Source of the DNA: an uncultured virus (IMG/VR IMGVR_UViG_3300023239_000006)
Taxonomy: Duplodnaviria > Heunggongvirae > Uroviricota > Caudoviricetes
Virus record (IMG/VR): IMGVR_UViG_3300023239_000006
Coordinates: 106,577 to 126,576 of that record
Reading direction: 5' to 3' (one strand)
Length of the DNA: 20,000 nucleotides
Below the pieces are notes generated by a model. The model was given only the letters and a program-made list of their open reading frames with translations, ran no database searches and was not told the DNA's origin. Each line of letters starts with the position of its first letter. The first letter of the stretch is position 1. This document shows, one piece after another, positions 1-19,452 of this stretch. Both the position numbers and the translations under genes were made by a program.

Positions 1-537
1 GCAGCTAGGAAAGCCTTTACTAAGATGTTTTGGGTAGTTGACGGCGATGCTGTAATTGTAGACACATTCAACTTTAATTATGTAGTAAGCAAATACGATC
101 TAGAATGTGTACATGTTTGGCGCAGCCAAAATCCAGTTAATGGACTAGAATACGGATACGGCGGAGTTAAACTACTTCCTAAGAAGTTGACTATGACTAT
201 GGACTTAGCTAGACCTGACATGACAACAAGCATTAGTCCGCTGTTTAAGGCCATGGAAGAGATCAGTAACATTACTGCATTTAACACTGATCCTTTTAAC
301 AGTTGGAAAAGTGCATTTAGAGAATGTTGTAAATTATCTAGTCGCGTTATTGATAGACAAGACGATACTGAAACTCAACAACGATTAAACACCTGGTGTA
401 CAGTTGGCACAGACATCGATGTACTTGCAGGAGCAATTGCTGGCCGCAAGTACGGTGAAGAAAATAAATTAGATGTAGAAGCATTAAAAAAGATTAATAA
501 TTTTAAATGGTTAGAGGAACAGTTCTATGGACGATAA
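1..537 (+). CDS. Glycosyltransferase-like (DxD) phage protein, C-terminal part; 5'-truncated by the window edge
   Basis: The frame is open from base 1 (AARKAFTK-MFWVVDGDA), so the listed ATG at 25 is probably internal. The hydrophobic strand plus DGD (FWVVDGDA) resembles the GT-A DxD motif. It sits next to sugar-modifying genes. Confidence 0.5.
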   Translation, partial: AARKAFTKMFWVVDGDAVIVDTFNFNYVVSKYDLECVHVWRSQNPVNGLEYGYGGVKLLPKKLTMTMDLARPDMTTSISPLFKAMEEISNITAFNTDPFNSWKSAFRECCKLSSRVIDRQDDTETQQRLNTWCTVGTDIDVLAGAIAGRKYGEENKLDVEALKKINNFKWLEEQFYGR

Positions 538-1894: not shown

Positions 1895-1901
1895 GGACAC
1901 T

Positions 1902-2927: not shown

Positions 2928-3700
2928 TTAATATTAATAATTTATCAACAGCATTTGATAATTTTCATAAAGAAAAATATTCACACTGTGTAATTGATAA
3001 TTTTTTAAATGAAGATGTTGCTACCCAGATAGCAGCAGATTTTCTTGCGTATGATTCTGGATTATTTAACGGCAACTATGATAATCAAATTGAACTGAAG
3101 CGTACTTGTAATATATGGGATAGATTCCCTGCGAGTATCTACCAACTAATAACATATCTTAATTCACCTACATTTATAGACGTACTATTGACATACACAG
3201 ATTGCGGCACGCTATATTCTGATCCAGGAATCCACGGAGGTGGCTTACATTCTCATCCAGATGGCGGTAAACTAAATCCGCATCTTGATTATAATCTTCA
3301 TCCTAAATTAGGCCTACAGAGAAAGTACAATCTTCTTATCTACCTTACTCCTGATTGGCAACTAGAATGGGGAGGAGATTTTGGCATATGGGGAAGTGAT
3401 GGCACTGCTCCCACTCATCTAATTAAACAAATATCTCCTATCTTTAATAGAGCAATTTTCTTTGATACTTCCCAGTCGTTCTGGCACGGACTAGCAACTA
3501 CTGTTTCATGCCCACTAAATATATCAAGAAACAGTCTAGCAATATATTACCTAACAGATCCGCCAACTGACACCAATACTCGAAACAGAGCACTTTTTTC
3601 TCCTACTTCGGATCAAAAAAATAATCTTGAAGTATTAGACTTAATAAAGAGGCGAAGCATTACTAATGGCAATAATGTAGAACAGTGGAATAGATTATGA
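2912..3700 (+). CDS. 2OG-Fe(II) oxygenase (prolyl-hydroxylase-like family)
   Basis: HxD (LNPHLDYN), distal His (SFWHG), downstream Arg (SRNSLAIYY), and WGGDFGIW / PIFNRAIFF strands typical of this fold. Confidence 0.85.
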   Translation: MANSLININNLSTAFDNFHKEKYSHCVIDNFLNEDVATQIAADFLAYDSGLFNGNYDNQIELKRTCNIWDRFPASIYQLITYLNSPTFIDVLLTYTDCGTLYSDPGIHGGGLHSHPDGGKLNPHLDYNLHPKLGLQRKYNLLIYLTPDWQLEWGGDFGIWGSDGTAPTHLIKQISPIFNRAIFFDTSQSFWHGLATTVSCPLNISRNSLAIYYLTDPPTDTNTRNRALFSPTSDQKNNLEVLDLIKRRSITNGNNVEQWNRL

Positions 3701-5025
3701 ATTTTCTTTTTGAAAACACTCAAGAACAAACAAATTTTTTAGAATGTCCAGATGTTAACTCATCAGGTATACGACGATTTACTACTAGTCCGTTTGTATC
3801 TTCTTTAATTAGATGGAAAACTACAAAGCAGCCTCTGTCCGGTCTTAACAGCATATCTGTAAAAGTAGATTTATCAAAAAATAAAAAATTATATGACAAG
3901 TACATTATATCAACCGGAGTAGCACATTCACCGTGGGATTGGTGCGGGTATACTGAGCTAAACACGCAGTATGATTCTTATATGTCTGAACGAAAATCAG
4001 TATTTGCCTATCTAAGCGAAAAGCAACTATCAGCAATTCGCAAAAAGAAATGCTACTTACTATTAGATCAATCGCATGAAGGCTATCATACTATTTGGCT
4101 GTTTAAGTGGTTTCACGACTGCTGTTCTCATTACAATATAAACCCAACTCAAGTAATATATGTAACTGGCAATCTTGCAGTTATTGAACAGTATAGTAAT
4201 TGGTGCAGTGAGAATGTACCCCAATCAAAACTATGCGTAATTCCAAATATACAATTTGAAGAATTTATACAAACCGCTGTTGAAAATCAAATAAGAACTC
4301 TGCCAACATCTAGTCAACAAGTAGAATACAAAACAAAAAATATAGAAGACATCAAAGTATACAACGCATTTCAAAAGCGATCACGTCCCCACCGAATCTG
4401 GCTGTTCAGCAAGTTATACGAAAATCAATTAATGAATGATGGCGTCAATAGCATGAATTCTTTTAGTTATCGTAACTCTCACTATGAAGGTCGAGTGCTT
4501 GATCCAGAATTATACAAATCGTTTATAAACTTGTTACCTATGTATCCTAGAAACAATCTTGATAGTAAGAATAAAAAAGGATTTGAAGGATCGTTGGGCG
4601 ACTTGTTTGAACAAGATTTAAATCAGCAAGAAACATTAGACACTTGGATCAGTGTAGTTAGTGAAGCATCATTTGCTGAAGATACTTGCTTTATAAGTGA
4701 AAAAAGTTTTAAGCCAATTGCAGTCAATCATCCATTTATACTGTATGGAAACAAAAATAGTTTAAAATATTTTAGAGAGCTAGGATATAAAACATTTGGT
4801 GAATTTATTGATGAGTCTTATGATAGTTTAGAATCTTGGGATAGACTAGATGCAATTATAAAAATAATACAAAATATTAAAGCAATGTCTTCCGATGAAA
4901 AATTAAAATGGTTCATATCAATGCAGCCTATTTTAGATCATAATTTTAAAACCTTAGAAGAAAATACAAGAAAGCGATTACCAAGTTCTATAACTTTATT
5001 GCACAACTATTTTCTTGGAAACTAA
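3697..5025 (+). CDS. Hypothetical protein, possible glycosyltransferase (GT-B/GT10-like C-terminus)
   Basis: 442-aa ORF. C-terminal ISVVSE...FISEKSFKPIAVNHPFILYG resembles the E-x(n)-(T/S)EK-x-x-P-I/F nucleotide-sugar binding segment of GT10-like enzymes. Glycan-gene context. Confidence 0.5.
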   Translation: MNFLFENTQEQTNFLECPDVNSSGIRRFTTSPFVSSLIRWKTTKQPLSGLNSISVKVDLSKNKKLYDKYIISTGVAHSPWDWCGYTELNTQYDSYMSERKSVFAYLSEKQLSAIRKKKCYLLLDQSHEGYHTIWLFKWFHDCCSHYNINPTQVIYVTGNLAVIEQYSNWCSENVPQSKLCVIPNIQFEEFIQTAVENQIRTLPTSSQQVEYKTKNIEDIKVYNAFQKRSRPHRIWLFSKLYENQLMNDGVNSMNSFSYRNSHYEGRVLDPELYKSFINLLPMYPRNNLDSKNKKGFEGSLGDLFEQDLNQQETLDTWISVVSEASFAEDTCFISEKSFKPIAVNHPFILYGNKNSLKYFRELGYKTFGEFIDESYDSLESWDRLDAIIKIIQNIKAMSSDEKLKWFISMQPILDHNFKTLEENTRKRLPSSITLLHNYFLGN

Positions 5026-5027
5026 TA

Positions 5028-6056
5028 ATGTACAATAAACAAATTATCGAAATCAATACTGATCTCAAAAGAACACGTAAAGCTATCATTAGCTTAGGAT
5101 GCTCTTTTGTTGAAGGTCAAGGCGCAGTTAATCAAGAAATTTATGACAACTATGAATGGAGTATGACAAAGACCGGAATTCCTATGAGTCCTATCTTAAC
5201 TGCTAGTCAACAAACTACTTTGCTTTCTAATCATCCTGAATTGTTACTAGAAACTGGAGGTATAAATTGGACATTTATGGAATATCAAAATGCATTTGTT
5301 AATATACTATGCAAAAAATATTTTGATGCAGGCTATACTCCCATTAATTTTGGTCTAAGAGGTAAGGGTAATCGAGCTTCAATTAAAAGTTTGTATTTTC
5401 ATCCTCAACTAAATTGGCAGGACATTGACGAGTTGATAGTTATATATGTGCCAAGCGGCCCTGAACGTTTTGATTTTGTAAGTGACGAATTCAATGAACA
5501 CCAGCAGTTTCAATGTGCTTGGCCTTGGTATGAAGATCAAGAAAAAAGCCCTCGGAAGACACTGTGGAAAGGATACGGTACTGCAATATACAGCGAAAAG
5601 TCAGCAATGCTAGAGCAAATATCAAATGTTATTGAATTGGAAAACTGGTGTAAACTAAAAAACGCAAAATTAATAATTACTCCTGGATTTGATAGATCGT
5701 ATAAAAAAGAAAGATTTAACGAAATTATTCAAAATACAGTAGAGAGGAATCATCTCCAACAAACTACAAAGTATACAGACTATGCACATGACAAAAAAAC
5801 AACTAGACGATCTGTTGCTGACCAAACAATATTTAACGCAATTGTAGAGCAATGGCCATGGGACAAAATGTTTGTTCCGCAGGGCTGCAACACATTTATG
5901 GACTTATGCCTAAAGCAAGAAGGGCTAGAACACACTGGTTACTGGGACTACAATGGCAAGGGAACTCCTAATTATTGGATAACCAAATGCTGTCATCCTA
6001 GTGCAAAGGGGCACGATCTATTTGCACAAGAACTTTTTAAATTCATTACGGCGTAA
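5028..6056 (+). CDS. SGNH/GDSL hydrolase-like protein
   Basis: Block I-like LGCSFVEG, block II-like NFGLRGKGN, C-terminal CCHPSAKGHDLFA (block V HP..GH). Confidence 0.6.
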   Translation: MYNKQIIEINTDLKRTRKAIISLGCSFVEGQGAVNQEIYDNYEWSMTKTGIPMSPILTASQQTTLLSNHPELLLETGGINWTFMEYQNAFVNILCKKYFDAGYTPINFGLRGKGNRASIKSLYFHPQLNWQDIDELIVIYVPSGPERFDFVSDEFNEHQQFQCAWPWYEDQEKSPRKTLWKGYGTAIYSEKSAMLEQISNVIELENWCKLKNAKLIITPGFDRSYKKERFNEIIQNTVERNHLQQTTKYTDYAHDKKTTRRSVADQTIFNAIVEQWPWDKMFVPQGCNTFMDLCLKQEGLEHTGYWDYNGKGTPNYWITKCCHPSAKGHDLFAQELFKFITA

Positions 6057-6057
6057 T

Positions 6058-6843
6058 ATGTATAAGTTGCTAAATGCAAGCCCGTTGCCTGATTATGTAA
6101 CTGATTATAAATTTTTAAAATCCTTAATACTAAATTACGCAGACGATGCAACACCCGGGCACCAAATTTATTCAAATAAGTTTACTTCGTATGATTCGCC
6201 TGCCCTGTTTGAGAAAAATTTACAAACTCAGCCAGATGACTGGCATTATCGATCAAAAGAAGTAACATACGCTTGCAATCTTAATGGTTATAGAGCAGAC
6301 GAGTGGCATTTAATTGACTGGCAAAATGCTGTTGTAGTATTTGGATGTTCTTGCACACTAGGAGTAGGGTTAGCTGAGGATGAAACAGTTACTGCTCAAT
6401 TGTCTAAAATGTTAAATAGACCAGTGGTTAATATGGGCGCTAGTGCATCTTCTATGCAATTTTCTTTTATAAACTCAACATTACTATCTAAGTATTTTCC
6501 AACTCCGTATGCTGTAGTCAACTTATGGACAAATATAGATAGATTTACTATTTTTAAAGATTACAAGATAGATCACGCTGGTCCGTGGGACGATACGGCT
6601 ATGTATAAAGAATATGCAACTAATATCCATCATTCAATGACAGAAGCTAGCTACATATCTATTGCAAGTAGGGAGCTTTGGAAAAATCGGTGCAAGTATT
6701 ATTCTGCTAGTTTTTTTGACCAAACAGCACACTACACAGAAAGTGCATGGATTGAAATTGATAATCAAGCAAGGGATCTAACTCATCCTGGAAGAATATC
6801 ATCTAAAAAAATGGCTCGATTAATTTCTAGAAATATTGCTTAA
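6058..6843 (+). CDS. SGNH/GDSL hydrolase-like protein
   Basis: FGCSCTLGVG, VVNMGASASS and RDLTHPG (DxxH). The likely start is ATG 6058, just after the upstream stop, rather than GTG 6001. Confidence 0.65.
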   Translation: MYKLLNASPLPDYVTDYKFLKSLILNYADDATPGHQIYSNKFTSYDSPALFEKNLQTQPDDWHYRSKEVTYACNLNGYRADEWHLIDWQNAVVVFGCSCTLGVGLAEDETVTAQLSKMLNRPVVNMGASASSMQFSFINSTLLSKYFPTPYAVVNLWTNIDRFTIFKDYKIDHAGPWDDTAMYKEYATNIHHSMTEASYISIASRELWKNRCKYYSASFFDQTAHYTESAWIEIDNQARDLTHPGRISSKKMARLISRNIA

Positions 6844-9284: not shown

Positions 9285-9750
9285 TTGCTAGTACCTGCTT
9301 CATTTCAATTTCTGTTTTAAACGGACCTTGATATTCATAGCGTTGTAATGTAATAAGTTTGGGACAGTGACTCTTGACCCACCCTTTTTCAAATTTAATA
9401 ACATAGTATCCAGCACAGTACAAACTCTTGCTATCTCCGCTCTTAGTAAAGAGTGGAAGCTTTCTTTGAATATCAAACATTGAGTTGTGCGGAGTGGCAC
9501 TAGTTGTATATCCGTGGACTTCATTTGGTTCTGCACCTGTTGCTTCTTTAATAATCTTAACAACAAAAAACGCTTTGCCAAACTCTCGAGTTAGACTTTC
9601 TTTGTTATCGTAAATTTTAATTCCAAATTCATTGCTTAGAACAAACCGGTTGTCATCATTCATCCTAAGTGTTCCAAACTTTTCTCCGCCTTTTTCAACA
9701 ATCCAAAATTTATTGTCGATGATCGGTTTAGCATGTAGTTCTGTTGTCAT
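9271..9750 (-). CDS. Hypothetical phage protein
   Basis: 159-aa ORF; ATGA overlap with the stop of the nuclease gene. Confidence 0.75.
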   Translation of the reverse strand: MTTELHAKPIIDNKFWIVEKGGEKFGTLRMNDDNRFVLSNEFGIKIYDNKESLTREFGKAFFVVKIIKEATGAEPNEVHGYTTSATPHNSMFDIQRKLPLFTKSGDSKSLYCAGYYVIKFEKGWVKSHCPKLITLQRYEYQGPFKTEIEMKQVLANVSK

Positions 9751-10733
9751 AGTGTGTATCTCGCATTTAAAGGTTCAGCATATGCTTGTGCTTGATCTGA
9801 AATCTTCTTTAGATCGTACAGTCCGCAAAACTTCATAAGTCGCAGACCAACTTGACTAATGTTTTTATTAGCACTAGTTGCTTCTGCAATATTCTCAACC
9901 ATAATAGATTTAATATCGTCGGGCTGGTGTGCAAGGTCGATGAGTCGACGATTGCGTTCGTAATCTTCTAGCACTCGATGTTCTAGTCCGTTGTGGTCAG
10001 TCCATCTCTGTAGCATTAGGTTGTTCCACGAAAAGCCTTTGCTTTTACGATCTTCAAACGCTTCAGTGAGGCCTACTTTTTTGCTTGTGCCTTTAGTGCG
10101 TACACCGGGATATGCTGAGAAGACATTATCGCTAGTATCGCCACGCATACATTTTTCAAACAACAACCACTCTGGATCTGGGATTGCTTTAGGTAGTTGT
10201 GTTTTCTTGTCAATGACTCTTTTACCTTTTGCGTCAAATACGCCTTCATGGGTAATTGTAGTTTCCATTACACCGTTGTACTGTTTTACATTAGGCGCAA
10301 TTAATTGTACAAAGTCAGTGTCAGTACTAATAATGATGTGATTGTCGTTAGGATGACTCTGTATCCAGCCAGCAATAAGATCATCTGCTTCTAGGCGAGG
10401 ATGTTGCATAACTGTACAGTTAGTCTTATCTTTGATAAAGTCTTTAAACGTGTCAAATGCTTCCCAGAAGATTTTTTCTTCGTCTGCTTCTTTTTCGGTA
10501 TGTGCGGCACGAGCTGCTGCACGTTGAGCTTTATAAGGCTTGTAGTAATCTTTGCGCCAGCTGCGACCTTCTAAACAGAAGATAACGTGACTGCCGTTAA
10601 AGTCTTGCCACGCCTTCTTCACGCTGTTAAGAGTGATATGAAACGCCATGCCTAGCTTAATATCAGCGTCGCCGTTAATAACGTGTCTAGCACGAAAGAA
10701 TGTATTTGCTGTATCAACTATAATGTAATTCAT
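9747..10733 (-). CDS. rnh: T4 RNase H-like 5'-3' exonuclease/flap endonuclease
   Basis: FEN/5'-nuclease acidic motifs: IIVDTANTFFR, SWRKDYYKPYKAQR, EADDLIA, STDTDFVQL, GDTSDNV. Confidence 0.88.
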   Translation of the reverse strand: MNYIIVDTANTFFRARHVINGDADIKLGMAFHITLNSVKKAWQDFNGSHVIFCLEGRSWRKDYYKPYKAQRAAARAAHTEKEADEEKIFWEAFDTFKDFIKDKTNCTVMQHPRLEADDLIAGWIQSHPNDNHIIISTDTDFVQLIAPNVKQYNGVMETTITHEGVFDAKGKRVIDKKTQLPKAIPDPEWLLFEKCMRGDTSDNVFSAYPGVRTKGTSKKVGLTEAFEDRKSKGFSWNNLMLQRWTDHNGLEHRVLEDYERNRRLIDLAHQPDDIKSIMVENIAEATSANKNISQVGLRLMKFCGLYDLKKISDQAQAYAEPLNARYTL

Positions 10734-11182
10734 TTGTTGTTCTTTTTAACTGTGTTAATATCGATCACACCAGTGTTTACTGCACCGCCGAAATCACCAT
10801 CTATCACTACGCCTGCGCATAGTTCACGGAACCAACGATCGACAATCTCTTCTTCTTTGTCGCCATCAAACCCGTAACCTTCTTGCTTTAATTTTAACAC
10901 AAACTGTTCGTTCCAGTCAAGCTCAAAAAACCCATTACGGATGTTGTCTTTGTTTACATGTGTTTCGATTACACCTACCCAAGGTTCTTTTAAACGAGTT
11001 GCTTTATCTTTTGCGCTAAGTTTCGCTACTTCTTCTGCTTCTTTAGCAAGCACTGCTTGTTCTGTTGCTTCTTTTGCAATTTGTATAGAACGTTCTGCAT
11101 CTTCTACAGCACGTTTAGTTTCGGCTTTGATCTTATCAATGCCAAACAATTTTTCAACCCACTTGTTCATTATGTACCCCAC
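10730..11182 (-). CDS. Hypothetical phage protein
   Basis: 150-aa ORF (may start at the MNKW ATG, 11170); N-terminal helical/coiled segment. Confidence 0.72.
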   Translation of the reverse strand: MGYIMNKWVEKLFGIDKIKAETKRAVEDAERSIQIAKEATEQAVLAKEAEEVAKLSAKDKATRLKEPWVGVIETHVNKDNIRNGFFELDWNEQFVLKLKQEGYGFDGDKEEEIVDRWFRELCAGVVIDGDFGGAVNTGVIDINTVKKNNK

Positions 11183-12015
11183 TCATTTTTAAACAGCGGC
11201 ACTTGCAGTCGGTCACTGTATCGCAAACCGTTCTTCATAGCTAGCACTGCTACGTTCTTATTGTTCATAGCATATACACTTTCGACACCGCCGACTGGCA
11301 TTAAGTAGACATGTCCTTTAAACCCTGCTGCACGGAATGCAGCAATTGCACGTTCGGCATCGGCAAAGTCTTGTTCTGTAGCAATAACAAACTTCAAATA
11401 TGCTGTACCAACTTCTTCATACTCACAAACAACTTCTGGCTTAATAGCGTCTTCCCACTTTTCACCACTGCATGGCAGTTTAGCACTTACACTGAATGTA
11501 AGTTCTTTACCTACTTCACTATTCCACTTAGCCAAGAAACCTTTAAACTCCGGAGTCAGTTTTTGAGTACCGTTTGTTTCAAAAGTAATCTCTTTCAAGT
11601 CACGCATCTTGGTGTTGTTAAGCAAATCCGGATAAGCACGTTGCCAGCCCAGTAGCGGCTCGCCGCCTGTAATAACCAAGTGTTCGTCCTTCCAATGATC
11701 CTGCGGGAGAATTTCCATAATACGATCTACAATTGCTTCGCTTGTAAGCATCGGACTAAGAGTTTTGAACTCTGGCATCCAGCTAGCGTAGCTATCACAG
11801 CCAGTACTAACTAGTGGCAAGTCCTCGTATTTTGCAAACATATGAGCAACTACTGAAATTTCTTCAGCTTCCTTGCTTAGTTCACCTCTAGGCATGCCAA
11901 ATCCGCTACACGTAAAGTTGCAACCAAATGTGCGTAGAAATACAGAAGGGACGCCCATATAACGTCCTTCACCTTGAATGCTGTAAAACAGCTCTGCGAT
12001 TTTAATTTTACTCAT
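11170..12015 (-). CDS. queE: 7-carboxy-7-deazaguanine synthase (radical SAM)
   Basis: IAELFYSIQGEG...PSVFLRTFGC N-terminus, VITGGEPLL, FETNGT, SVSAKL, LKFVI, YLMPVG and RLQVPLF all match QueE. FolE is nearby. Confidence 0.88.
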   Translation of the reverse strand: MSKIKIAELFYSIQGEGRYMGVPSVFLRTFGCNFTCSGFGMPRGELSKEAEEISVVAHMFAKYEDLPLVSTGCDSYASWMPEFKTLSPMLTSEAIVDRIMEILPQDHWKDEHLVITGGEPLLGWQRAYPDLLNNTKMRDLKEITFETNGTQKLTPEFKGFLAKWNSEVGKELTFSVSAKLPCSGEKWEDAIKPEVVCEYEEVGTAYLKFVIATEQDFADAERAIAAFRAAGFKGHVYLMPVGGVESVYAMNNKNVAVLAMKNGLRYSDRLQVPLFKNEWGT

Positions 12016-12020
12016 AGTTT

Positions 12021-12049
12021 ATTATACACTCTTTTTCTGTAATTGCCAA
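12021..12049 (-). promoter_or_regulatory. Sigma70-like promoter upstream of queE (TTGGCA-N17-TATAAT)
   Basis: -35 at 12044-12049, -10 at 12021-12026, 17-nt spacer; ATG only 5 nt after the -10. Confidence 0.55.
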
Positions 12050-12186
12050 GAACCGTTGCCTTGATCTAGCCATTCTAATGTGTCTCCTTCTTTCCAATTT
12101 TGCATATCTAACAGATCTTGCGGTATTGGCATAATAAGATCGCCATTCTCGGGATCTTCTTTTAGGGTAACTGTCCAGTGTGTCAT
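12022..12186 (-). CDS. AbrB/MazE/SpoVT-like small DNA-binding protein (54 aa; not in the supplied ORF track)
   Basis: Hand translation MTHWTVTLKEDPENGDLIMPIPQDLLDMQNWKEGDTLEWLDQGNGSWQLQKKSV matches the swapped-hairpin pattern (G-x-hydrophobic-P-IP..L...W.EGD.L.W). ATGA overlap with the upstream stop. Confidence 0.75.
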   Translation of the reverse strand: MTHWTVTLKEDPENGDLIMPIPQDLLDMQNWKEGDTLEWLDQGNGSWQLQKKSV

Positions 12187-12377
12187 ATTCTATCACTTAA
12201 TAATATTTTACAAAGTAATGCGTCTTGTTCGTTATTGAACTCAAACGACATTGAATTTTCTGTAGGATGGGATGTGTACTTATCACCAGGAAGCCCAAAC
12301 TGTTCTAAAACCATCGCGCAGGTTTCATTCCACCAATGACTATTTTGATTATCCCAAGGAACGAGTATAGTATTCAT
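12183..12377 (-). CDS. Hypothetical phage protein
   Basis: 64-aa ORF with ATGA overlaps at both ends. Confidence 0.7.
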   Translation of the reverse strand: MNTILVPWDNQNSHWWNETCAMVLEQFGLPGDKYTSHPTENSMSFEFNNEQDALLCKILLSDRI

Positions 12378-12616
12378 CGGCCTCTTAAATTAGTACTAGT
12401 CTTACTAATCTTAGGACCTGCGCTTTCAAAGTCCATGCCCGCCATGCGACCTTCATACTTACTACCATTCCAATTCATCAATAGTTTAACACTCTTGTTC
12501 ATAACCACAGTAAGGTTACGTCCCTCGTTACACTGCATGACTTCAGCCTCCATCTCTCTTTTACTGGAAACCTGAGTAACAGTACAGGTGTTATCGTGCC
12601 TAGTTATTACACTCAT
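12374..12616 (-). CDS. Hypothetical phage protein
   Basis: Likely start is ATG 12616 (MSVITRH...), overlapping the TGA of the PRTase gene. Confidence 0.7.
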   Translation of the reverse strand: MSVITRHDNTCTVTQVSSKREMEAEVMQCNEGRNLTVVMNKSVKLLMNWNGSKYEGRMAGMDFESAGPKISKTSTNLRGR

Positions 12617-13110
12617 TTTGTCCACCATTCTTCATAAGGAAATTCAATCCACACATCGTTTTCGGCTTTGTTAACTTCCATACCACAGTAGTTCATACCT
12701 ACGCTGCATTGGCTAGATAAGTTATCAACAACAACAGCAAATCTTACGTTGTTACTCCAGATCTGTTGCCAACTGGTGTCATCTGGAAAACAGCCACTTG
12801 GCCAATCATTCATCAGCCAGTTTAGTGTACTGCCTTGATCATTAATGTCGTCAACAACAAGAATGTTCTTTCCGTAAAACGCATCTTCAGCCATGCCTAG
12901 ATTGCTAGTACATTCTCCGCCGTCACGCAAACTGATATCTAACGATTGCATGGGAACGTTTAAGTAATGGCTGATCATTACAGCAGGCAATAATCCGCCT
13001 CTTGTAAGTCCTACAATGAAATCCGGCTTCCAATTATCTGCGGCAATTTCTCTACAGATAGTAGAAACTAAACCTTTAAATTTTCTGTCATTAATTATGA
13101 GTTTGTTCAT
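12613..13110 (-). CDS. Type I phosphoribosyltransferase (xanthine/guanine PRT-like)
   Basis: IVGLTRGGLLPA loop, PRPP-binding motif ILVVDDINDQGSTL, and C-terminal WIEFPYE as in Gpt-like enzymes. Confidence 0.85.
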   Translation of the reverse strand: MNKLIINDRKFKGLVSTICREIAADNWKPDFIVGLTRGGLLPAVMISHYLNVPMQSLDISLRDGGECTSNLGMAEDAFYGKNILVVDDINDQGSTLNWLMNDWPSGCFPDDTSWQQIWSNNVRFAVVVDNLSSQCSVGMNYCGMEVNKAENDVWIEFPYEEWWTK

Positions 13111-13567
13111 TTTGTTCTTTACGAGTTTTTAAATAATATTCATTTTGAATCCATTCATCATTTACTAGAAATCCCCATTCTCGTTTGTGGGGACCTGGCA
13201 TAAACAATGTCCAAGGAGTTATTCCTTCTTTTAATTCAATGCGGTGATAACTAGTAGGGCTAGACACGCGAAAATGACCGGGTCCACGCCACTTACGAAT
13301 CTCGCAACTTTTTGTACCATCTGGATTAAATTCTGGAATCCATTCATAATAGCCACCTTTTAAAATTAAAGTAAAATAACTCCATGGATGATCGTGAACA
13401 TCATCTGGATCACCTTTATGGAACTTGTGTAGAAACACATTAAACGGAAAATGCTTTCGATCTTTTAGAAAAAGATAATAACGGGTTAACAACGGTTCGT
13501 TGCTCACTCGATCCATAATTATACGTTTACGACCCAGCCTATCTAAAAAATCGAGAAACCATTTCAT
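13091..13567 (-). CDS. Cupin-fold protein, putative metalloenzyme
   Basis: LHKF...HDHPW...ILKGGYYE...YHRIEL...WTLFM: cupin motif 1 (HxH...E) and the motif 2 His. Confidence 0.6.
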   Translation of the reverse strand: MKWFLDFLDRLGRKRIIMDRVSNEPLLTRYYLFLKDRKHFPFNVFLHKFHKGDPDDVHDHPWSYFTLILKGGYYEWIPEFNPDGTKSCEIRKWRGPGHFRVSSPTSYHRIELKEGITPWTLFMPGPHKREWGFLVNDEWIQNEYYLKTRKEQNEQTHN

Positions 13568-13603
13568 TTACGTGTCTCCATATTTACTAAAGAAGCAATA
13601 CAC

Positions 13604-14320
13604 TTATCGCTTATTGGATTCTTGGAGACTCAATGTATCAAAGAACTCTTTCTTTGTACCTGGATCTTTATTAAACGCACCTTTAAGCACTGAAGTAGTT
13701 GTTGAACTATCGTGTGCCATTATGCCTCGGTTCTCACAACATCCATGAGTCATTCTTAAATATACACCTACGTTTTCTGAATCAGTTGCTTTACTAATTT
13801 CTCGAGCAATGTCATTACATAGTTCCTCTTGTAGGGTGCCACGGCGAGCGCACCACTGAGCAATGCGAGTATACTTGCTAAGACCAATTAGTTTTTCTGC
13901 CGCAATAATGCCAATATAAGCAACCCCAGTAACGGGTTGGTGATGATGTGAACACATACTACGAAGTTCACTGCGAACCACGAGCATGCCTTCGTAACGG
14001 TCTGCCGAATTGTTTGGAAATGCTGTTACGTCTGGTGCTGGATCATATCTGCCTGTCATGATTTCATTAAAGTACATTTTAGCAAGCCGCTTTGCAGTGC
14101 CTTTGCTATTTGGATCTGTTTCTCGATCAATAAGCAAGCGATCTAGCACACCTTCAAATGCTTCTGCTGCTTCGGTGATTAGTGTATCCTTTTCAACATC
14201 GCTAACGTATTCGCTGATGTTGTCTCCTGCCCAAAACCGTTTGTTATCGCGTTTGAGTTTGTCGCGGATAACCTGGCTTAGCGGTCTTCCGTCTTCTTCT
14301 CTATAATTCAATTGTGTCAA
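13604..14320 (-). CDS. folE: GTP cyclohydrolase I
   Basis: TAKRLAKMY, SMCSHHHQP, IGLSKYTRIA, LQEEL, HGCCENRG Zn/catalytic motifs. TTG start with a GGAG SD. Confidence 0.92.
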   Translation of the reverse strand: MTQLNYREEDGRPLSQVIRDKLKRDNKRFWAGDNISEYVSDVEKDTLITEAAEAFEGVLDRLLIDRETDPNSKGTAKRLAKMYFNEIMTGRYDPAPDVTAFPNNSADRYEGMLVVRSELRSMCSHHHQPVTGVAYIGIIAAEKLIGLSKYTRIAQWCARRGTLQEELCNDIAREISKATDSENVGVYLRMTHGCCENRGIMAHDSSTTTSVLKGAFNKDPGTKKEFFDTLSLQESNKR

Positions 14321-14362
14321 TATATTTCTCCGATGTTTAAGCAGTGGATTGCCTGTATAGTT

Positions 14363-15436
14363 TTATTTTAGCATCTCTAATAGTTTATTGCAACTAAAAT
14401 AATGTTCAGTTAATGCATCTACTTGTTTATTTAGGCTGGGTAAAAACTTTTCGTAATTTTCCATGTACTGTATAATCTTGTAGCAGATTTCTTGTCTATG
14501 GATATTATAGTTCTCCCAAGTATCAGTCCATTCGCTCGGATACTTGAAAGTATCAAATGCCATTTCGCTGTAGCTTAGTCTATCTGGCATCATTGGAACA
14601 GCGCCCACTAATGCACCTTCATACCAACTAATGCCTAACGTTTCTTGCAAGTTTGCACTAAACACAATCTTAGATTGTCCTAGCAGATTGTGGTATTCAT
14701 TCTTTGTCAGCTGTTGATCCTGACATACAACAAACTCATACTGAGGCAAGTGCATAGCTAAGTCACGAAAGATATCTACTTGTTTCTCTGGCGCTATGCG
14801 ATGAGGGAACAGTATAAGGTCACGCTTTGGCATGTTCTTATACATAGTCAATGTATCTTCCATATACTCCATGGGCCACCCAGTCTGGACAATCTTCTTA
14901 GAAACTTTATAGTTATAAACTGTACCTAAGTTAACCTCTAACAAATTGTTACGAAACATATCGATATGAAAATTCGTAGCAAAATAGTTATGATCGAACG
15001 CATGAAAGAAACTTTTCTCAGCGTGTCTAACCCAAGGCTTATTACCAACAAGACGTCCTAAAAAGTCTTGTGGGTCATAACTGCCAGCATGCCATAGTCC
15101 ATGTGTAGTTACTGGAATACCCAGTAATTCGCTCATGTACTTGAGATTGATGATACCAGGGTGCCAAGCATCAGTAAATATAAAATGATCACCTGGGCGA
15201 ACGGCTCCATTACAAAATAAACGGCCCAGCTGCTCAACTTGACTAGCCTTGTATATATTAGTTCCGCCAAAGTTGAGAAACGCTCCAGGAGTAGTTGCAC
15301 TAGGAATATCCGCAGGGCCTGATATAATTTGAACATTGTGTCCTTTCTCTCGTAGTAAGGCAGGCACATGGGACTGCCATTGTCCAGTGTACCTTGTCTC
15401 GACTGCTTCTAAATCAACGAGAAAAATTCTGCTCAT
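14363..15436 (-). CDS. GT-B fold glycosyltransferase, possibly DNA-modifying
   Basis: C-terminal Rossmann domain with FPHRIAPEKQ and SANLQETLGISWYEGALVGAVP (E-x7-E motif of GT4-like enzymes). Lies inside the deazaguanine cluster. Confidence 0.75.
   Translation of the reverse strand: MSRIFLVDLEAVETRYTGQWQSHVPALLREKGHNVQIISGPADIPSATTPGAFLNFGGTNIYKASQVEQLGRLFCNGAVRPGDHFIFTDAWHPGIINLKYMSELLGIPVTTHGLWHAGSYDPQDFLGRLVGNKPWVRHAEKSFFHAFDHNYFATNFHIDMFRNNLLEVNLGTVYNYKVSKKIVQTGWPMEYMEDTLTMYKNMPKRDLILFPHRIAPEKQVDIFRDLAMHLPQYEFVVCQDQQLTKNEYHNLLGQSKIVFSANLQETLGISWYEGALVGAVPMMPDRLSYSEMAFDTFKYPSEWTDTWENYNIHRQEICYKIIQYMENYEKFLPSLNKQVDALTEHYFSCNKLLEMLK
14365..14393 (-). promoter_or_regulatory. Sigma70-like promoter upstream of folE (TTGCAA-N17-TAAAAT, with extended -10 TGn)
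   Basis: -35 at 14388-14393, -10 at 14365-14370 preceded by TGC, 17-nt spacer. Confidence 0.5.
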
Positions 15437-15671
15437 TGCGCTTTCCGTTATTATCCCAACGTGGGTTCTTGCCTAGGTAAGGCCGGCGCGGTCGCTTGCT
15501 TGCTAGGAACGCACCATAGTTAGGAGCACCTTCTTTGCGGTAAATTTCCGCAGGGTCAAACTCTCGAAGTTCCATACGACAAAAGTCTTGAAACGCTTCC
15601 AAGTCATCAAAGATCCGAACAATGTCGGGGCGATTTTTAAAATAGGCAACGTCGCGGTAATTCTTAGCCAT
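15414..15671 (-). CDS. Hypothetical phage protein
   Basis: 85-aa ORF with an AAGGA SD. Confidence 0.7.
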   Translation of the reverse strand: MAKNYRDVAYFKNRPDIVRIFDDLEAFQDFCRMELREFDPAEIYRKEGAPNYGAFLASKRPRRPYLGKNPRWDNNGKRNEQNFSR

Positions 15672-15701
15672 GTTAGCTTTCCTTAGTACTTAATAATATT
15701 A

Positions 15702-16082
15702 TTATGGTTTGTATTCGATGATACCATCGGATTCACCGTCTTCTGACACTACAATTTCGTAGTATCGATTTGATCCATATGCTGGAATCAAATGCTTTTC
15801 CAAGATGTCTGTTGCAATCATTTCGCAACTCTTGTGATTCATTTTACCGTCTTTAATAAATTCTGCCAATGCCCACTTAACAAGGAAGAACTCTAATTCA
15901 CGGTCTAAGTGTGTAACACTAATCTTTACTTCAACTTTGAACATGTGTCGATGTTCATTTTCAAGAAACTGGATACGTGGATCAATTGATCCAGCGTTTG
16001 GGTAATAGTGAAACCCTTCAAATTCTGTACGAACTTTAATAAACGTCATAGTTGCTGGGCGAATGTCTTGTTTAATAATCAT
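15702..16082 (-). CDS. QueD/PTPS-like T-fold protein with LxxxHRHxF motif (DpdL-like)
   Basis: FEGFH...LENEHRHMF...SCEMIA...VSEDGE. The His triad and SxE motif fit the QueD fold, but CxxxHGH is replaced by LxxxHRHxF. Confidence 0.7.
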   Translation of the reverse strand: MIIKQDIRPATMTFIKVRTEFEGFHYYPNAGSIDPRIQFLENEHRHMFKVEVKISVTHLDRELEFFLVKWALAEFIKDGKMNHKSCEMIATDILEKHLIPAYGSNRYYEIVVSEDGESDGIIEYKP

Positions 16083-16327
16083 AGAATGTACTTTGATGAT
16101 ATAGGTCCTTTGCCTTGCAACCCGAAATGCTCTTTGATTGTAGATCTACAAAGTGTACGTTGATACTGTGCTGCCTCTGTTGGACCTTCTTTAGTAAATT
16201 GCATATTATCAATAATTGTAACACATTCTTCTAGCAATAGTCTAGCAAAATTCTCTTGATTGGTAACATTGACACCTAAAATATTTTCAGTTGCCTTGTC
16301 TAATGCACGTTTAATTTTTTGGTTCAT
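16079..16327 (-). CDS. Hypothetical phage protein
   Basis: 82-aa ORF with ATGA overlaps at both ends. Confidence 0.65.
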   Translation of the reverse strand: MNQKIKRALDKATENILGVNVTNQENFARLLLEECVTIIDNMQFTKEGPTEAAQYQRTLCRSTIKEHFGLQGKGPISSKYIL

Positions 16328-16593
16328 CTCATACTTTCCATAGTTATAATTTTACCAAGTTCCTCACCGAGGTCTTTGTCATCGTGAATGATGTACATTT
16401 TATTATTGTCCTCATCACGTTTACGATCATAGTTACGAACTTCTACTACAAAGCCGCCACTACCTTTGTAGACCTGTAGTTTCATGCCATCGCTATGAAA
16501 ACGCTCTTCTGATTCTCTAGTGGGCTTCTCGTACTCAATCGCGTCGTCATTTTGATTAAGGACCCAGTTGCGGAATCGTTGTTTCAATGTCAT
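16324..16593 (-). CDS. Hypothetical phage protein
   Basis: 89-aa ORF; the frame stays open upstream to about 16728 without an ATG. Confidence 0.7.
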   Translation of the reverse strand: MTLKQRFRNWVLNQNDDAIEYEKPTRESEERFHSDGMKLQVYKGSGGFVVEVRNYDRKRDEDNNKMYIIHDDKDLGEELGKIITMESMR

Positions 16594-16723
16594 TTTTATG
16601 CTCTTTACTTTATTAACTGCGGTGCGTGTGCCTTGAACTCGGCAACCGCTAGTGCCTATTCCACGTGAATTACGGGTTGATACTTTACTAGAGGAGTTGT
16701 GTATGCTGATCCATGTGGTCCCA

Positions 16724-17236
16724 TTACTTTACAATCTCATCGTTTTTGTATTGTGACCAGTCTGCAAACTTACTACGATCCATTAGCGTATGTAGACTAT
16801 GAGACCATACGCCGGGATTGGTTGCTTTAAAATCTTTATCATCAATCTTTAGCATTGTATTATAATTCCATAACTTGATATATGGAATAGGCACACGAAT
16901 CTGCGGAATAAAGTTATTGTATTCGCAGTAACCGCTTTCATGAAACTCTTCTACCTGGCTCATTGGAATATCTAGACTGCACAGATACTCTTTCTTCAAA
17001 AAGTAAAAGATCATCTCTTCCCAACACTTATGCTCTTCGTAGTCTTTAGGGTTAAAACTATGATTAGCGCCAAAGAAGATATGCTCACAGCCCTGTAAAT
17101 TCAATGCAATATTTCCTACAGGTTGTACGCCTGTAACAAACAAAGTTTTTAACCCGTATGCAGGAGTATGTTCTACTTCATTACCGATAAAGAATACAAT
17201 ATCGTCAGCAACGCCGTCTGCGTAATCACGTTTCAT
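16724..17236 (-). CDS. Hypothetical protein, possible enzyme linked to the deazaguanine cluster
   Basis: 170-aa ORF with enzyme-like motifs (GNEVEHTPAYG, HIFFGANHSF, KIDDKDF..TNPGVW). Confidence 0.7.
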   Translation of the reverse strand: MKRDYADGVADDIVFFIGNEVEHTPAYGLKTLFVTGVQPVGNIALNLQGCEHIFFGANHSFNPKDYEEHKCWEEMIFYFLKKEYLCSLDIPMSQVEEFHESGYCEYNNFIPQIRVPIPYIKLWNYNTMLKIDDKDFKATNPGVWSHSLHTLMDRSKFADWSQYKNDEIVK

Positions 17237-17679
17237 TCTTCAAAACCTCCATCTTTCATTTCTTGTGTGCGTTTACGTTCTTGCAGTTCTGCTTCATGGA
17301 CATCACACAATGTACGTATCCATCCGTCGCCTCGTCTCTTTCCAACACTACCACACTCTTCGCATGTAATGTCTGCCCACGATTCTGCCATGCTAACTAG
17401 ACCGCGAATGTAGTCATCGCCGCCATCGTAGTAGAAACGCAGTCCACCAAACTTTTCTTTAATCTGTGCCACAGTTACTTGTGGAACAACTTCCGCTGTT
17501 TTATTCTTCCAGTTGAGGTGATGCTGGATATTAGAACAGAGTGTTTCTAACAGTAGATACCAGCCAGCGCCTACAGAAAAGCCGCCGTAATCACCTGCAA
17601 ACATCTTGGGAAACTGTTCTTCCATATTCTTGGCAAATGTTTCGTACTTGTTAAGTCCTTGATCTTCACCCATTACCAT
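17233..17679 (-). CDS. Hypothetical phage protein with C-terminal zinc-ribbon-like motif
   Basis: QIKEKFGGLRFYY, CEECG...TLCDVH (CxxC...CxxH). The start may be ATG 17673. Confidence 0.72.
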   Translation of the reverse strand: MVMGEDQGLNKYETFAKNMEEQFPKMFAGDYGGFSVGAGWYLLLETLCSNIQHHLNWKNKTAEVVPQVTVAQIKEKFGGLRFYYDGGDDYIRGLVSMAESWADITCEECGSVGKRRGDGWIRTLCDVHEAELQERKRTQEMKDGGFEE

Positions 17680-17876
17680 GTACTCAAATCAGTGATGTCA
17701 ATTTTAGTATCGACATCTTTATCATTGTCATTAAAGAGATTAAATTCAATAGTAATCCCTTCCCCTATGCCACTACTACGATCTACCCTGATAGTGAACC
17801 ATTCTATTTCTTTAAAATGGGTCACTATCTCGGTGAGCTTTTCAATTTGTTTACGATTAAGTGATAGTGTATTCAT
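17673..17876 (-). CDS. Hypothetical phage protein
   Basis: 67-aa ORF directly downstream of a consensus promoter. Confidence 0.65.
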   Translation of the reverse strand: MNTLSLNRKQIEKLTEIVTHFKEIEWFTIRVDRSSGIGEGITIEFNLFNDNDKDVDTKIDITDLSTW

Positions 17877-17882
17877 ACATTA

Positions 17883-17911
17883 ATTATAGCATCAAATTGC
17901 TCAGTTAGCAA
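17883..17911 (-). promoter_or_regulatory. Sigma70-like promoter (TTGCTA-N17-TATAAT, with extended -10 TGn)
   Basis: -35 at 17906-17911, -10 at 17883-17888 preceded by TGC; fills the intergenic gap; ATG 6 nt after the -10. Confidence 0.65.
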
Positions 17912-17913
17912 TG

Positions 17914-19452
17914 TTATTCTGCTACCAGTTTATCCAACTCGCCATCTTCGCGATCATCGTTCCACGAATCCTTGTCTTCACTGCCTTCTTCATAGAACAG
18001 ATCGTTTGAGATATTCGTAACGCCACCACGCAAGCGTGAGCCTTCCAAATTCTGCATAAAGCCTCTAGTCTCTGCGTCAGCAATCATAGCAAATGCGGAT
18101 TCTTTGTCTGGACAGCCAAACAGCTCTTCAACAAAACGATCAAAGTACAGAATGTTACGGGGAACCCAATCACTATACTCGTCACTCATGTCACGATCTT
18201 TGTTCTTCTTCCACAGTCTCCAGTCTGGTCGGATCTTAGCCTGTTCAATATCTGCCAAGTTGTTAGCACGTTGTACAGCAACAATATGTTGATAAACATT
18301 ATGACCCATCATCAGTGCATAACCAAAGCTGTCCCACGAAGTCTTGCCTTCTTTGCCAATCTTGTTTAGCATTCCTGGCTTGTAGTGACAGATATCTGAA
18401 ACATTTAGTCTGCGACCAATCTCGCTTTCGAATGGAAACGGAATGTCCGGGCGCGACGCAAGTGCTTTATTATCTGGAGCTTTGTCCATAATAACACTCC
18501 ACCGCTTGGCTGTATGCTGACTGTTAGTGTAAACAAGTCCGTGTGCAGTTGCAATAAACGGCGACGCACAATCAAAGCTAATTGTAAAGTTAGGATTAAT
18601 ATGTTTACGGACCTGACGTTGAATACTGGTCAAATAGCACGACCAATCTAATTGTGCAGTGCCCAAGAAGTGCATCCAATCCTTGCCTTCTAGCATACCG
18701 TCAAACCGCATAGTGATTATGCGGCGTAGTGCAATATGCATCTTACACATATTCGCACCGCCCATTGCCCACCCTTCAGCGGCTTTATCGCCCCAAACTT
18801 TCTTATCGCTAAACTCTTTAACACCTTCGTACCACGCTTCGGCAGTATCCCAGTTACTACCTTGTAGAACGTTTAGGAACTTAGTAGCACCTAAACGATT
18901 GTCCAAGAAGTACTTGTTATTGTGACGAGTTTTATCTAGACAGTCTTCAAATGACTTTAGTCCTGTCTTTGGACTATGAATATGGTCACATGCCCACGTA
19001 GGAACGTCTAGCATCATTGACCAATCAGCAGTTAGTTCAAGCCAGTTAAGAATATCATCACGAGTCTTGTTAGCTTTTTTGCCTTCAAAGTCTAGCCAAT
19101 CAAACTTAAGGATACCTTTACCAATCTGGTAACCACCGGAGTCGCCCAAGATCATTGTTTTGTTGCGATCACGTTGCTGAATCATTGAGTCATGATCCAT
19201 AGTCTTAACTAGATCTAGTTGTGCATGGCCTGCTGAATACAATCCGTACTTGTAATAGAAGTATCCTTCTTCTGGGTTTAAGAAGTTCATACCTTCGATG
19301 CCTCGATCAAAACCCGCTGGAATTCGATCTTTGGGTACAAAATCTCCCTTGCGTTGTTTTGCCACGTAGGTAGAATAGAAACTACTAATCGCAGGCAAAT
19401 AGACTGCGTAGTCTTTCTGTAGGGGTGTTAAATCAACTGGTTGTTTGCTCAT
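17914..19452 (-). CDS. dpdA: TGT-fold 7-deazaguanine DNA transglycosylase (DpdA/DpdA2-like)
   Basis: TGT motifs LGDSGGYQ, MMLDVP, NVLQG, GWAMGG, HFLG, SFDCASP and late HN. It is long and divergent, and lacks the CxCxxC zinc site of bacterial tRNA TGT. Co-located with folE and queE in a phage. Confidence 0.78.
   Translation of the reverse strand: MSKQPVDLTPLQKDYAVYLPAISSFYSTYVAKQRKGDFVPKDRIPAGFDRGIEGMNFLNPEEGYFYYKYGLYSAGHAQLDLVKTMDHDSMIQQRDRNKTMILGDSGGYQIGKGILKFDWLDFEGKKANKTRDDILNWLELTADWSMMLDVPTWACDHIHSPKTGLKSFEDCLDKTRHNNKYFLDNRLGATKFLNVLQGSNWDTAEAWYEGVKEFSDKKVWGDKAAEGWAMGGANMCKMHIALRRIITMRFDGMLEGKDWMHFLGTAQLDWSCYLTSIQRQVRKHINPNFTISFDCASPFIATAHGLVYTNSQHTAKRWSVIMDKAPDNKALASRPDIPFPFESEIGRRLNVSDICHYKPGMLNKIGKEGKTSWDSFGYALMMGHNVYQHIVAVQRANNLADIEQAKIRPDWRLWKKNKDRDMSDEYSDWVPRNILYFDRFVEELFGCPDKESAFAMIADAETRGFMQNLEGSRLRGGVTNISNDLFYEEGSEDKDSWNDDREDGELDKLVAE

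Follow-up and report, generated by a model that had tools for sequence, protein, structure and literature searches.

The 20,000-nucleotide stretch of DNA analysed here (the window) is the last 20 kb of the 126,576-base IMG/VR record IMGVR_UViG_3300023239_000006, from an uncultured virus of the Caudoviricetes, and carries a 7-deazaguanine DNA-modification cluster in which a GT4-like glycosyltransferase (GT) is encoded together with the DNA-guanine transglycosylase DpdA and the predicted decarboxylase DpdL. Phage, metagenomic and bacterial loci keep this GT linked to DpdA and DpdL, and we read it as a conserved partner that works with both. Clusters that bear it may end with a glycosylated 7-deazaguanine in DNA, a plausible, unproven reading to which we give slightly less than an even chance.

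Seven named genes, for QueE, a phosphoribosyltransferase (PRTase), a cupin, FolE, the GT-B glycosyltransferase, DpdL and DpdA, lie at 11170-19452, all on the minus strand (Table 1), as a preliminary description made from the letters of the window had stated when it listed seven co-oriented genes within about 8 kb. FolE, QueD and QueE together make 7-carboxy-7-deazaguanine (CDG), and DpdA swaps guanine in DNA for a deazaguanine. The protein that had been described as "QueD-fold" does have a QueD-like T-fold but is actually DpdL, as indicated by its motif LENEHRHMF and its match to DpdL of the Acidovorax phage ACP17 (YP_009609725; 41% identity, 3e-21, BLASTP); it also matches DpdL of the Pseudomonas jumbo phage PA5oct (QCG76199; 31%, 4e-13) and has no match in Pfam (PF01242 included) or NCBIfam. 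Cui et al. (2023; PMC10516641) put DpdL forward as the enzyme that decarboxylates CDG and described it as a paralogue of QueD with LxxxHRHxF in the position of CxxxHGH. They also defined the DpdA3 subfamily and reported that deoxyguanosine (dG) of the Cellulophaga phage phiST is wholly replaced by 2'-deoxy-7-deazaguanine (dDG; 302,000 per 10^6 nt). Their Data S1 lists DpdA3 (QCG76197), DpdL (QCG76199), QueE (QCG76203), FolE and QueD for PA5oct, and DpdA2 (YP_009609723), DpdL (YP_009609725), FolE, QueD and QueE for ACP17, both without QueC (PMC10516641). Because the "QueD-fold" protein is DpdL, the window cluster belongs to this published QueC-less, DpdL-type ("dDG type") group of phage clusters and is not a new kind of cluster. 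The lack of QueC had been read as a pointer to a new base; since the QueC-less type is already published with dDG as its product, predicted or measured (PMC10516641), that absence alone is no such pointer.

The description as a deazaguanine cluster without a preQ0 branch holds. Pfam models of QueC, QueF, PTPS (PF01242) and tRNA-guanine transglycosylase (TGT) had no match in the 126,576-base record, which is 36% complete, no Gat-QueC was found in the record, and neither QueC (PF06508) nor QueF (PF14489) occurs in any of five larger relatives (0/5; records 51-70% complete). The genome-wide search that the preliminary description had suggested thus agreed with it for queC and queF. For queD the outcome was mixed: QueD is absent from the record, yet a true QueD is encoded in four of the five relatives, tens of kb from the cluster, and for this reason it is probably encoded in the absent part of the source genome as well.

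The AlphaFold2 model of DpdA (P0001) has a mean predicted local distance difference test (pLDDT) score of 79, and its best 50 Foldseek rows are all Zymomonas TGT (probability 1.00, E 1.4e-7). The motifs GDSGG.Q (D104) and SFDCASP (D294) are invariant in the DpdA family (18 relatives), and we take these two residues to be the catalytic Asp positions of TGT. At the level of sequence, P0001 has no match in Pfam (TGT included) or NCBIfam and no phmmer match among PDB sequences, and the family profile found only chance matches in the PDB, none to TGT. Membership in the DpdA3 subfamily is supported by the match to PA5oct; DpdA3 of phiST aligns weakly and has DNG where the others have DSGG. DpdL of the window is 67.5% identical to DpdL of the freshwater Synechococcus phage BUCT-ZZ01 and only about 39% identical (median) to the DpdL of its own clade, whereas identity within the clade is about 78% for the adjacent GT, FolE and QueE. 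Because of this discrepancy, dpdL of the window looks like a foreign allele that has replaced the resident one.

The GT itself (P0002) has no Pfam (E 0.01 or better), PHROG or NCBIfam match and no phmmer match among PDB sequences. An alignment of 69 diverse relatives was the source of its AlphaFold2 model and of the motif and Pfam counts. The model (pLDDT 96.6, pTM 0.93) matches the GT4 enzyme BA1558, BshA, MshA, PglA and glycogen synthases in Foldseek with probability 1.00, and VIA gives Z scores of 26.1 to sucrose-phosphate synthase (SPS; 6kih), 25.2 to BshA and 24.4 to MshA, with 299-316 residues aligned. PF00534 (Glycos_transf_1) is matched by 41 of the 69 family members (best 1.3e-8) and PF13439 by three. 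The C-terminal domain holds an EX7E motif, presumably the mark of GT4 enzymes, in which E265 is conserved in at least 90% of the 69 sequences and E273 is invariant; H116, R213 and K218 are nearly invariant in the same set. Judged by its model, P0002 is a GT4-like, retaining-type GT-B glycosyltransferase, and because E265/E273, H116, R213 and K218 are conserved it looks catalytically intact. Its best match in BFVD is a 'Glycosyl transferase family 1 domain' protein of ACP17 (TM 0.90/0.93), and a cyanophage 'DNA alpha-GT' follows at rank 40 (E 2.7e-6). The family is large, with more than 8,000 90%-identity clusters matched and 1,180 50%-identity representatives.

Linkage of the GT to dpdA in related genomes, on which the preliminary description had staked its proposal, was found together with dpdL in five cultured-phage groups, in 80 IMG/VR relatives and in loci from bacteria and metagenome-assembled genomes (MAGs). 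In PA5oct (QCG76198) and ACP17 (YP_009609724) alike, dpdA and dpdL are separated by the GT orthologue. By tblastn the GT was detected in 22 phage records, 17 of them with at least 80% query coverage (11 PA5oct-like phages, Phosso, two ACP17 records, BUDD, X1 and BCSR5), and every one of these 17 also has a DpdL match. In the cultured-phage loci inspected, the GT lies a few genes or fewer from DpdL, FolE and QueE. The GT-bearing phages include two DpdA subfamilies, A2 and A3; P0001 matches ACP17 DpdA2 with an E value of 0.044 only. Five matches in PhiXhv/Ep0xx phages were rejected as orthologues and are remote paralogues (65% coverage, 24.5% identity, amino-sugar gene context). The IMG/VR relatives, found with a 13-sequence GT sub-alignment, are close relatives only (73-100% identity). 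They keep the gene order DpdA-p170-DpdL-s85-GT in 80 of 80 loci, where p170 and s85 are small conserved proteins (Table 1), and both DpdA and DpdL are present in all 58 loci with at least 5 kb of upstream sequence. QueE is encoded in all 49 of the loci that extend 7 kb or more downstream, FolE in 47, the cupin in 47 and the PRTase in 39.

Bacterial and MAG contigs provide more independent evidence of the linkage between the GT and DpdA than the IMG/VR clade. We counted as orthologues those proteins with at least 33% identity over at least 150 residues, which gave 37 loci. A DpdA3-like gene is present in 31 of them, within 3 kb in 29 and on the same strand in 29, and the six loci without DpdA are all ended by contig ends; DpdL is found in 25 of the 37. 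No DpdA was detected in the 29 loci with remote GT4 matches only. Both DSGG.Q and (F/Y/C)D are preserved in the bacterial DpdA3-like proteins. The GT-DpdA pair occurs without detectable FolE, QueE or DpdL in isolates of Pelagibacterium, Devosia, Azospirillum, Shimia, Sulfitobacter and Thalassobius, and because it persists there, the conserved unit is the GT together with DpdA. A Pfam scan places a gene for a Vut_1 (YhhQ-like) transporter immediately upstream of the GT in the loci of Pelagibacterium and Shimia. The bacterial islands scanned (L104, L116, L111 and L106) contain a resolvase or integrase, an ABC-3C system, a HEPN protein or a CoiA-like nuclease; among the alphaproteobacterial islands, two loci encode a MASE1 histidine kinase with a LuxR-type response regulator and a third a response regulator alone. 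A PADLOC scan gave no match for any cluster protein or for the bacterial-island neighbours. The alphaproteobacterial islands with a GT and a DpdA3-like protein may represent an undescribed bacterial DNA (or tRNA) deazaguanine-modification system.

The linkage also bears on whether the GT has anything to do with deazaguanine. It could stand in the replication module by chance and act on hydroxymethyl-pyrimidines in DNA, as in T-even phages, or on targets in the host envelope or the virion. Glucosylation of 5-hydroxymethylcytosine (5hmC) by phage GT-B enzymes is well known, the remote GT4 paralogue of the PhiXhv/Ep0xx phages stands in an amino-sugar context without deazaguanine genes, and the window also contains a dTDP-glucose-dehydratase-like gene (1872-2927). 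We nevertheless consider an unrelated role very improbable. DpdL or DpdA occurs in the record or locus of the GT in 17/17 phage records, 58/58 well-flanked IMG/VR loci and 31/37 genome loci, as opposed to 0/29 for the remote GT4 proteins, and T4 alpha- and beta-GT lie outside the 50 best PDB matches. A ThyA-family gene is present in four of five relatives, and the one checked (L162) is a true thymidylate synthase (NF002497, 374.7 bits vs cut-off 327). No dCMP/dUMP hydroxymethylase was found, with this thymidylate synthase as the sole ThyA-family gene checked and the records of the relatives incomplete.

From the gene identities, folds, catalytic motifs and linkage, which are observed, we infer the reaction of DpdL, the acceptor and donor of the GT, and the roles of the PRTase and the cupin. 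FolE, QueD (probably encoded elsewhere in the genome) and QueE would convert GTP to CDG, from which DpdL would generate 7-deazaguanine (DG) by a predicted decarboxylation, and the DpdA3-type transglycosylase would exchange guanine in phage DNA for the deazapurine. The GT would transfer a sugar from a nucleoside-diphosphate sugar onto the deazaguanine moiety, either once the base is part of DNA or earlier, on the free base that DpdA would then insert. The end product of the GT-bearing clusters (the source phage, PA5oct, ACP17, Phosso, X1/BUDD and BCSR5) would then be a glycosylated 7-deazaguanine, as opposed to the plain dDG of phiST. Most simply, the PRTase would salvage the guanine released by DpdA to GMP and GTP and thereby feed FolE. 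The cysteine-dioxygenase-like cupin might create or alter the acceptor group, a role that we hold loosely since the protein is not universal. Two published results fit a missing component: expression of dpdL and dpdA of ACP17 in Escherichia coli yielded no dDG (PMC10516641), and PA5oct DNA carries a modified G that resists restriction, uncharacterised in the part of the source covered (PMC12191111).

Several observations weigh against a sugar on the base. DG has no hydroxyl and CDG only a carboxylate, whereas GT4 enzymes usually accept a hydroxyl, and it is for this reason that we hold our estimate just below even. An extra handle-making step is needed, and none has been identified; cupin and PRTase are not universal in GT-bearing clusters, and the cupin was rejected as a universal handle-maker on account of its absence from PA5oct and ACP17. 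Moreover, phiST, in which tblastn found no GT orthologue, shows that the DpdL pathway works without the GT, and 12 of 29 DpdL-bearing phage records, phiST and its relatives included, lack it. The DpdA3 homologue of Phosso is about 170 kb away from its GT-DpdL-FolE-QueE group. BUCT-ZZ01 has no GT orthologue; two other group-1 GTs flank a 416-aa open reading frame (ORF), presumed to encode DpdA, and DpdL. The order there (L091, 2584-10043) is QueE - XGPRT - ORF - QueD - FolE - GT (447 aa) - 416-aa ORF - DpdL - GT (388 aa); DpdA-family and p170 profiles had no match among the BUCT-ZZ01 proteins compared, and in Shimia and Sulfitobacter a relative of the 447-aa GT is encoded close to the GT-DpdA pair. 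Members of the GT family are acidic (median isoelectric point (pI) 5.7, net charge -8), and the 50 best structural neighbours of the GT act on sugar, sugar-phosphate, small-molecule, lipid or polymer acceptors (SPS, BshA, MshA, GlgM, OtsA, LmbT). DNA glucosyltransferases are absent from these 50, and T4 alpha- and beta-GT are not in the best 50 PDB rows of either Foldseek or VIA. Finally, the IMG/VR loci form one clade and are therefore not independent observations.

Some of the same evidence serves another explanation, in which the GT belongs to the pathway without decorating DNA and the DNA ends with plain dDG (or dCDG), like that of phiST. The substrate of the GT could then be a soluble intermediate or a by-product, or the activity of DpdL or DpdA could depend on the GT in these lineages. 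In its favour, phiST attains 100% dDG with FolE, QueD, QueE, DpdL and DpdA3 alone, DG has no acceptor group, and many small-molecule-acceptor enzymes are among the closest structures of the GT, whose family is acidic. The failure of ACP17 dpdL and dpdA in E. coli fits a missing helper equally with a missing decorating enzyme. However, the EX7E residues are kept across the range of 31% to 94% identity, and this speaks for an active transferase. The bacterial islands, furthermore, pair the GT with DpdA without DpdL, FolE or QueE; since DpdL is dispensable to the pairing, the GT is not a DpdL helper. On balance we regard plain dDG as rather unlikely in the GT-bearing clusters.

The PRTase raises the question of whether modification could precede replication. 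Tubercidin and toyocamycin biosynthesis proceeds through a deazapurine nucleotide made by a PRTase, and the PRTase of the window could likewise make a CDG or DG nucleotide, with the GT acting on the nucleotide or nucleoside. PRTase genes are found near QueE in the window, in PA5oct (29-30% identity, tblastn, adjoining QueE) and in BUCT-ZZ01, where an XGPRT-annotated PRTase adjoins QueE. Of the 49 relatives with sufficient sequence downstream, 39 have one, and the structural neighbours of the GT often accept phosphorylated small molecules. Nevertheless, such a route is improbable: DpdA is always there, apparently intact and with its two catalytic Asp motifs, and ACP17, X1 and most of the bacterial GT-DpdA loci have no PRTase (found in 5/37). 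In addition, its best match is to xanthine/guanine PRTases, which fits guanine salvage; the nearest NCBIfam model is the xanthine PRTase NF006613 (2.7e-9, below cut-off).

The nearest functional precedent for the glycosylation that we propose is, by analogy, QTMAN (GTDC1), a GT4-type GT-B enzyme. It mannosylates queuosine in tRNA-Asp and thus sets a sugar on a 7-deazaguanine derivative in a polynucleotide (PMC11755703, seen in part). Its acceptor differs, being the cyclopentenediol of queuosine in tRNA, and queuosine cannot be made in the window phage without QueC and the later enzymes. A QTMAN-type N-terminal domain is not among the eight Pfam families matched by the 69 GT members (E 0.01 or better). 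T4 alpha- and beta-GT, two phage enzymes of the GT-B type, glycosylate 5hmC-containing DNA after replication. They differ from the window GT in belonging to other GT families and in requiring a hydroxymethyl handle.

Pterins offer a further acceptor. The combination of FolE, a PTPS-like T-fold protein and a GT resembles the cyanobacterial and Chlorobium pterin-glycoside pathways (in part from PMC5683033), and pterins share the 2-amino-4-oxopyrimidine ring with deazaguanine, so that the GT might be a pteridine glycosyltransferase acting on a pterin made by FolE and the T-fold enzyme. In the part of that source covered, the pteridine glycosyltransferase CtPGT is filed under the GT-1 and AviGT4-like families (PMC5683033), whereas the window GT family, compared by such filing, matches GT4-type models (PF00534, PF13439) and has EX7E. 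Linkage of GT and DpdA persists where FolE is absent, and the presence of QueE means that 6-carboxytetrahydropterin (CPH4) proceeds to the deazapurine. We therefore judge a pteridine acceptor highly improbable, and return to the modified base in DNA.

Among the systems with which the window can be compared, phiST shares the QueC-less organization, a DpdL with LxxxHRHxF, a DpdA3-type transglycosylase and adjoining replication genes, according to the portions of the published account used here (PMC10516641). It differs in having no GT, cupin or PRTase, in its 259-aa DpdA3 (512 aa in the window) and in that its base is known, dDG. PA5oct and the Wroclawvirus group share the order polB ... DpdA3 - GT - DpdL - ... 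- PRTase - QueE - ... - 5'-3' exonuclease, with identities to the window of 45% for DpdA, 42-43% for the GT and 31% for DpdL; in PA5oct, FolE and QueD are encoded elsewhere, and in place of the cupin lies a fragment of a short-chain dehydrogenase/reductase (SDR) 'Epimerase'. This protein (QCG76201), at the matching position, was considered as a cupin homologue and rejected, as it gave no alignment. The T4-like phage ACP17 encodes QueD, FolE, a p170-like ORF, DpdA2, GT, DpdL and QueE. Its GT is 35% identical to that of the window with a near-identical fold (TM 0.90/0.93), its DpdL is 41% identical, and the p170-like ORF is upstream of dpdA; it differs in the A2 subfamily of its DpdA (E 0.044 to P0001) and in lacking PRTase and cupin. 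In the Xanthomonas phage X1 (L004, 7332-7865), a PP-loop protein of the PAPS-reductase family (PF01507, 1e-13) is encoded between FolE and the GT; in that lineage it might, in the manner of QueC, amidate or adenylate CDG. The bacterial Dpd system (bDpdA, DpdB, DpdC) puts preQ0 or ADG into DNA by means of a TGT-fold DpdA encoded in chromosomal islands (PMC10164549, in the part seen). It differs from the system described here, since no PADLOC Dpd model matches P0001, DpdB and DpdC were not recognised, and DpdA of the window is partnered by a glycosyltransferase, to which two bacterial loci add a YhhQ-like transporter.

The known deazaguanine bases of DNA (dPreQ0, dPreQ1 and its derivatives, dADG, dG+, dCDG and dDG) bear small groups at position 7, and to our knowledge the sugars of DNA are found on pyrimidines. 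A conserved GT beside DpdA would unite these two strategies and, if the proposal is true, would provide the first glycosylated purine-type base in any genome, within the literature searched. No report of a glycosylated deazaguanine in DNA, or of this GT, was found in that literature, and the word 'glycosyl' has 0 occurrences in the main text of Cui et al., whose supplement was only partly covered (PMC10516641). The DpdA-linked GT4-type GT is thus a new element, and likewise no description was found for p170, s85, the PRTase and the cupin. A sugar-bearing base could explain the failure of ACP17 dpdL and dpdA in E. coli, the nature of the modified G in the candidate therapy phage PA5oct and why defence nucleases that sense hypermodified DNA hit PA5oct. 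Taken more broadly, it is possible, and we hold this a little more tentatively than the product itself, that DpdA-linked GT4-type GTs form a widespread and undescribed branch of deazaguanine modification, in which phages (the abundant uncultured jumbo-phage clade of the window, PA5oct, ACP17, Phosso and X1/BUDD) and the YhhQ-GT-DpdA islands of Alphaproteobacteria would place a sugar-bearing 7-deazaguanine in DNA; this base would also be the modified G of PA5oct. The gene family is very abundant and present in bacterial islands, and several GT-bearing phages are in culture.

Table 1. Genes of the deazaguanine cluster, with positions in the 20,000-nucleotide window.
Feature	Position	Strand	Length (aa)	Basis and remarks
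QueE-like radical SAM enzyme, CDG synthase	11170..12015	-	281	phrog_2076 'QueE-like radical SAM' 9.8e-51
Three small ORFs	12008..12628	-	62, 64, 84	No family match; presence varies among relatives
Type I phosphoribosyltransferase (PRTase)	12613..13110	-	165	PF00156 3.7e-12, 46.3 bits vs cut-off 26.3
Cupin, cysteine-dioxygenase-like	13091..13567	-	158	phrog_4786 'cysteine dioxygenase' 1.2e-33; no Pfam match
FolE, GTP cyclohydrolase I	13604..14320	-	238	PF01227 1.1e-37; phrog_2197 1.4e-44
GT4-like GT-B glycosyltransferase (P0002)	14363..15436	-	357	AlphaFold2 model and structural matches
s85, small basic ORF	15414..15671	-	85	pI 9.6; overlaps GT gene start; no Pfam/PHROG/NCBIfam match
DpdL, QueD-like T-fold protein, predicted CDG decarboxylase	15702..16082	-	126	LENEHRHMF fits LxxxHRHxF; phrog_17812 (unknown function) 3.5e-20
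Two small ORFs	16079..16593	-	82, 89	No family match; homologues of 89-aa ORF in 48/86 loci, of 82-aa ORF in 3/86
p170 (P0003), conserved unknown protein	16724..17236	-		Between dpdA and dpdL
Two small ORFs (148 aa, P0004; 67 aa)	17233..17876	-	148, 67	No family match; homologues in 21/86 and 20/86 loci (tblastn)
DpdA, DpdA3-type DNA-guanine transglycosylase (P0001)	17914..19452	-	512	45% identity, 9e-144, to PA5oct DpdA3 QCG76197.1

Among the other genes of the cluster, QueE also has weaker matches, to Pfam Radical_SAM (1.7e-6) and to NCBIfam QueE models (3e-16 to 2e-10), all below cut-off. The cupin has the invariant residues H58, D59, H60 and H108; an Atlas search returned CDO_I at 0.81 and 0.77, which we treat as a lead only, and its family profile found only chance matches in the PDB. 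Homologues of p170 occur in 71 of the 80 IMG/VR loci, invariably between DpdA and DpdL, and a 31% tblastn match was found to the ORF immediately upstream of ACP17 dpdA. Searches of Pfam, PHROG, NCBIfam, PADLOC and PDB profiles gave no match for p170, and the Atlas search returned no family. The small basic protein s85 is encoded directly upstream of the GT in 79 of the 80 loci.

CheckV places the 126,576-base record at about 36% completeness, which makes it one piece of a jumbo-phage genome of roughly 350 kb. Plus-strand genes occupy the window up to about 6843 and minus-strand genes from 6840 onward; the GC content is 0.32-0.44, and a tRNA search of the window found none. A megablast search of the cluster against 50,697 phage records gave no match, and no cultured phage was found. 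A second IMG/VR contig (L007) is identical to the window over the GT and 94-100% identical over other parts of the cluster, and extends beyond the window end. At its positions 1-5632, upstream of dpdA, it encodes an 889-aa family-B DNA polymerase and a protein with a weak DsbA-like regulator match, with polB placed as in PA5oct, and the cluster therefore lies inside a replication module. At 9747-11182, on the minus strand and directly downstream of QueE, come the genes of a protein of 150 aa (phrog_13349 'virion structural protein', 6.2e-14) and of a 5'-3' exonuclease or RNase H (PF02739, 4.5e-19). The two also follow QueE in 54 of the 80 relatives and in PA5oct.

Elsewhere in the window, a six-gene plus-strand block occupies 527-6843. 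It comprises a twitch-domain radical SAM protein (NF033640, 6.7e-96), the dTDP-glucose-4,6-dehydratase-like SDR at 1872-2927 (PF16363 4.4e-49; TIGR01181 3.3e-71, below cut-off), a 2-oxoglutarate-Fe(II) oxygenase and three ORFs without a family (442, 342 and 280 aa). Homologues of the block were almost never seen in the loci of relatives, which seldom extend that far. The block could serve sugar-nucleotide supply or tailoring, or be an unrelated modification module. Three cluster-bearing contigs (L096, L100 and L109, with GTs 93%, 60% and 48% identical to that of the window) are binned in MAGs of Crocinitomicaceae (Bacteroidota), which may be a hint to the host of this phage clade or an artefact of binning.

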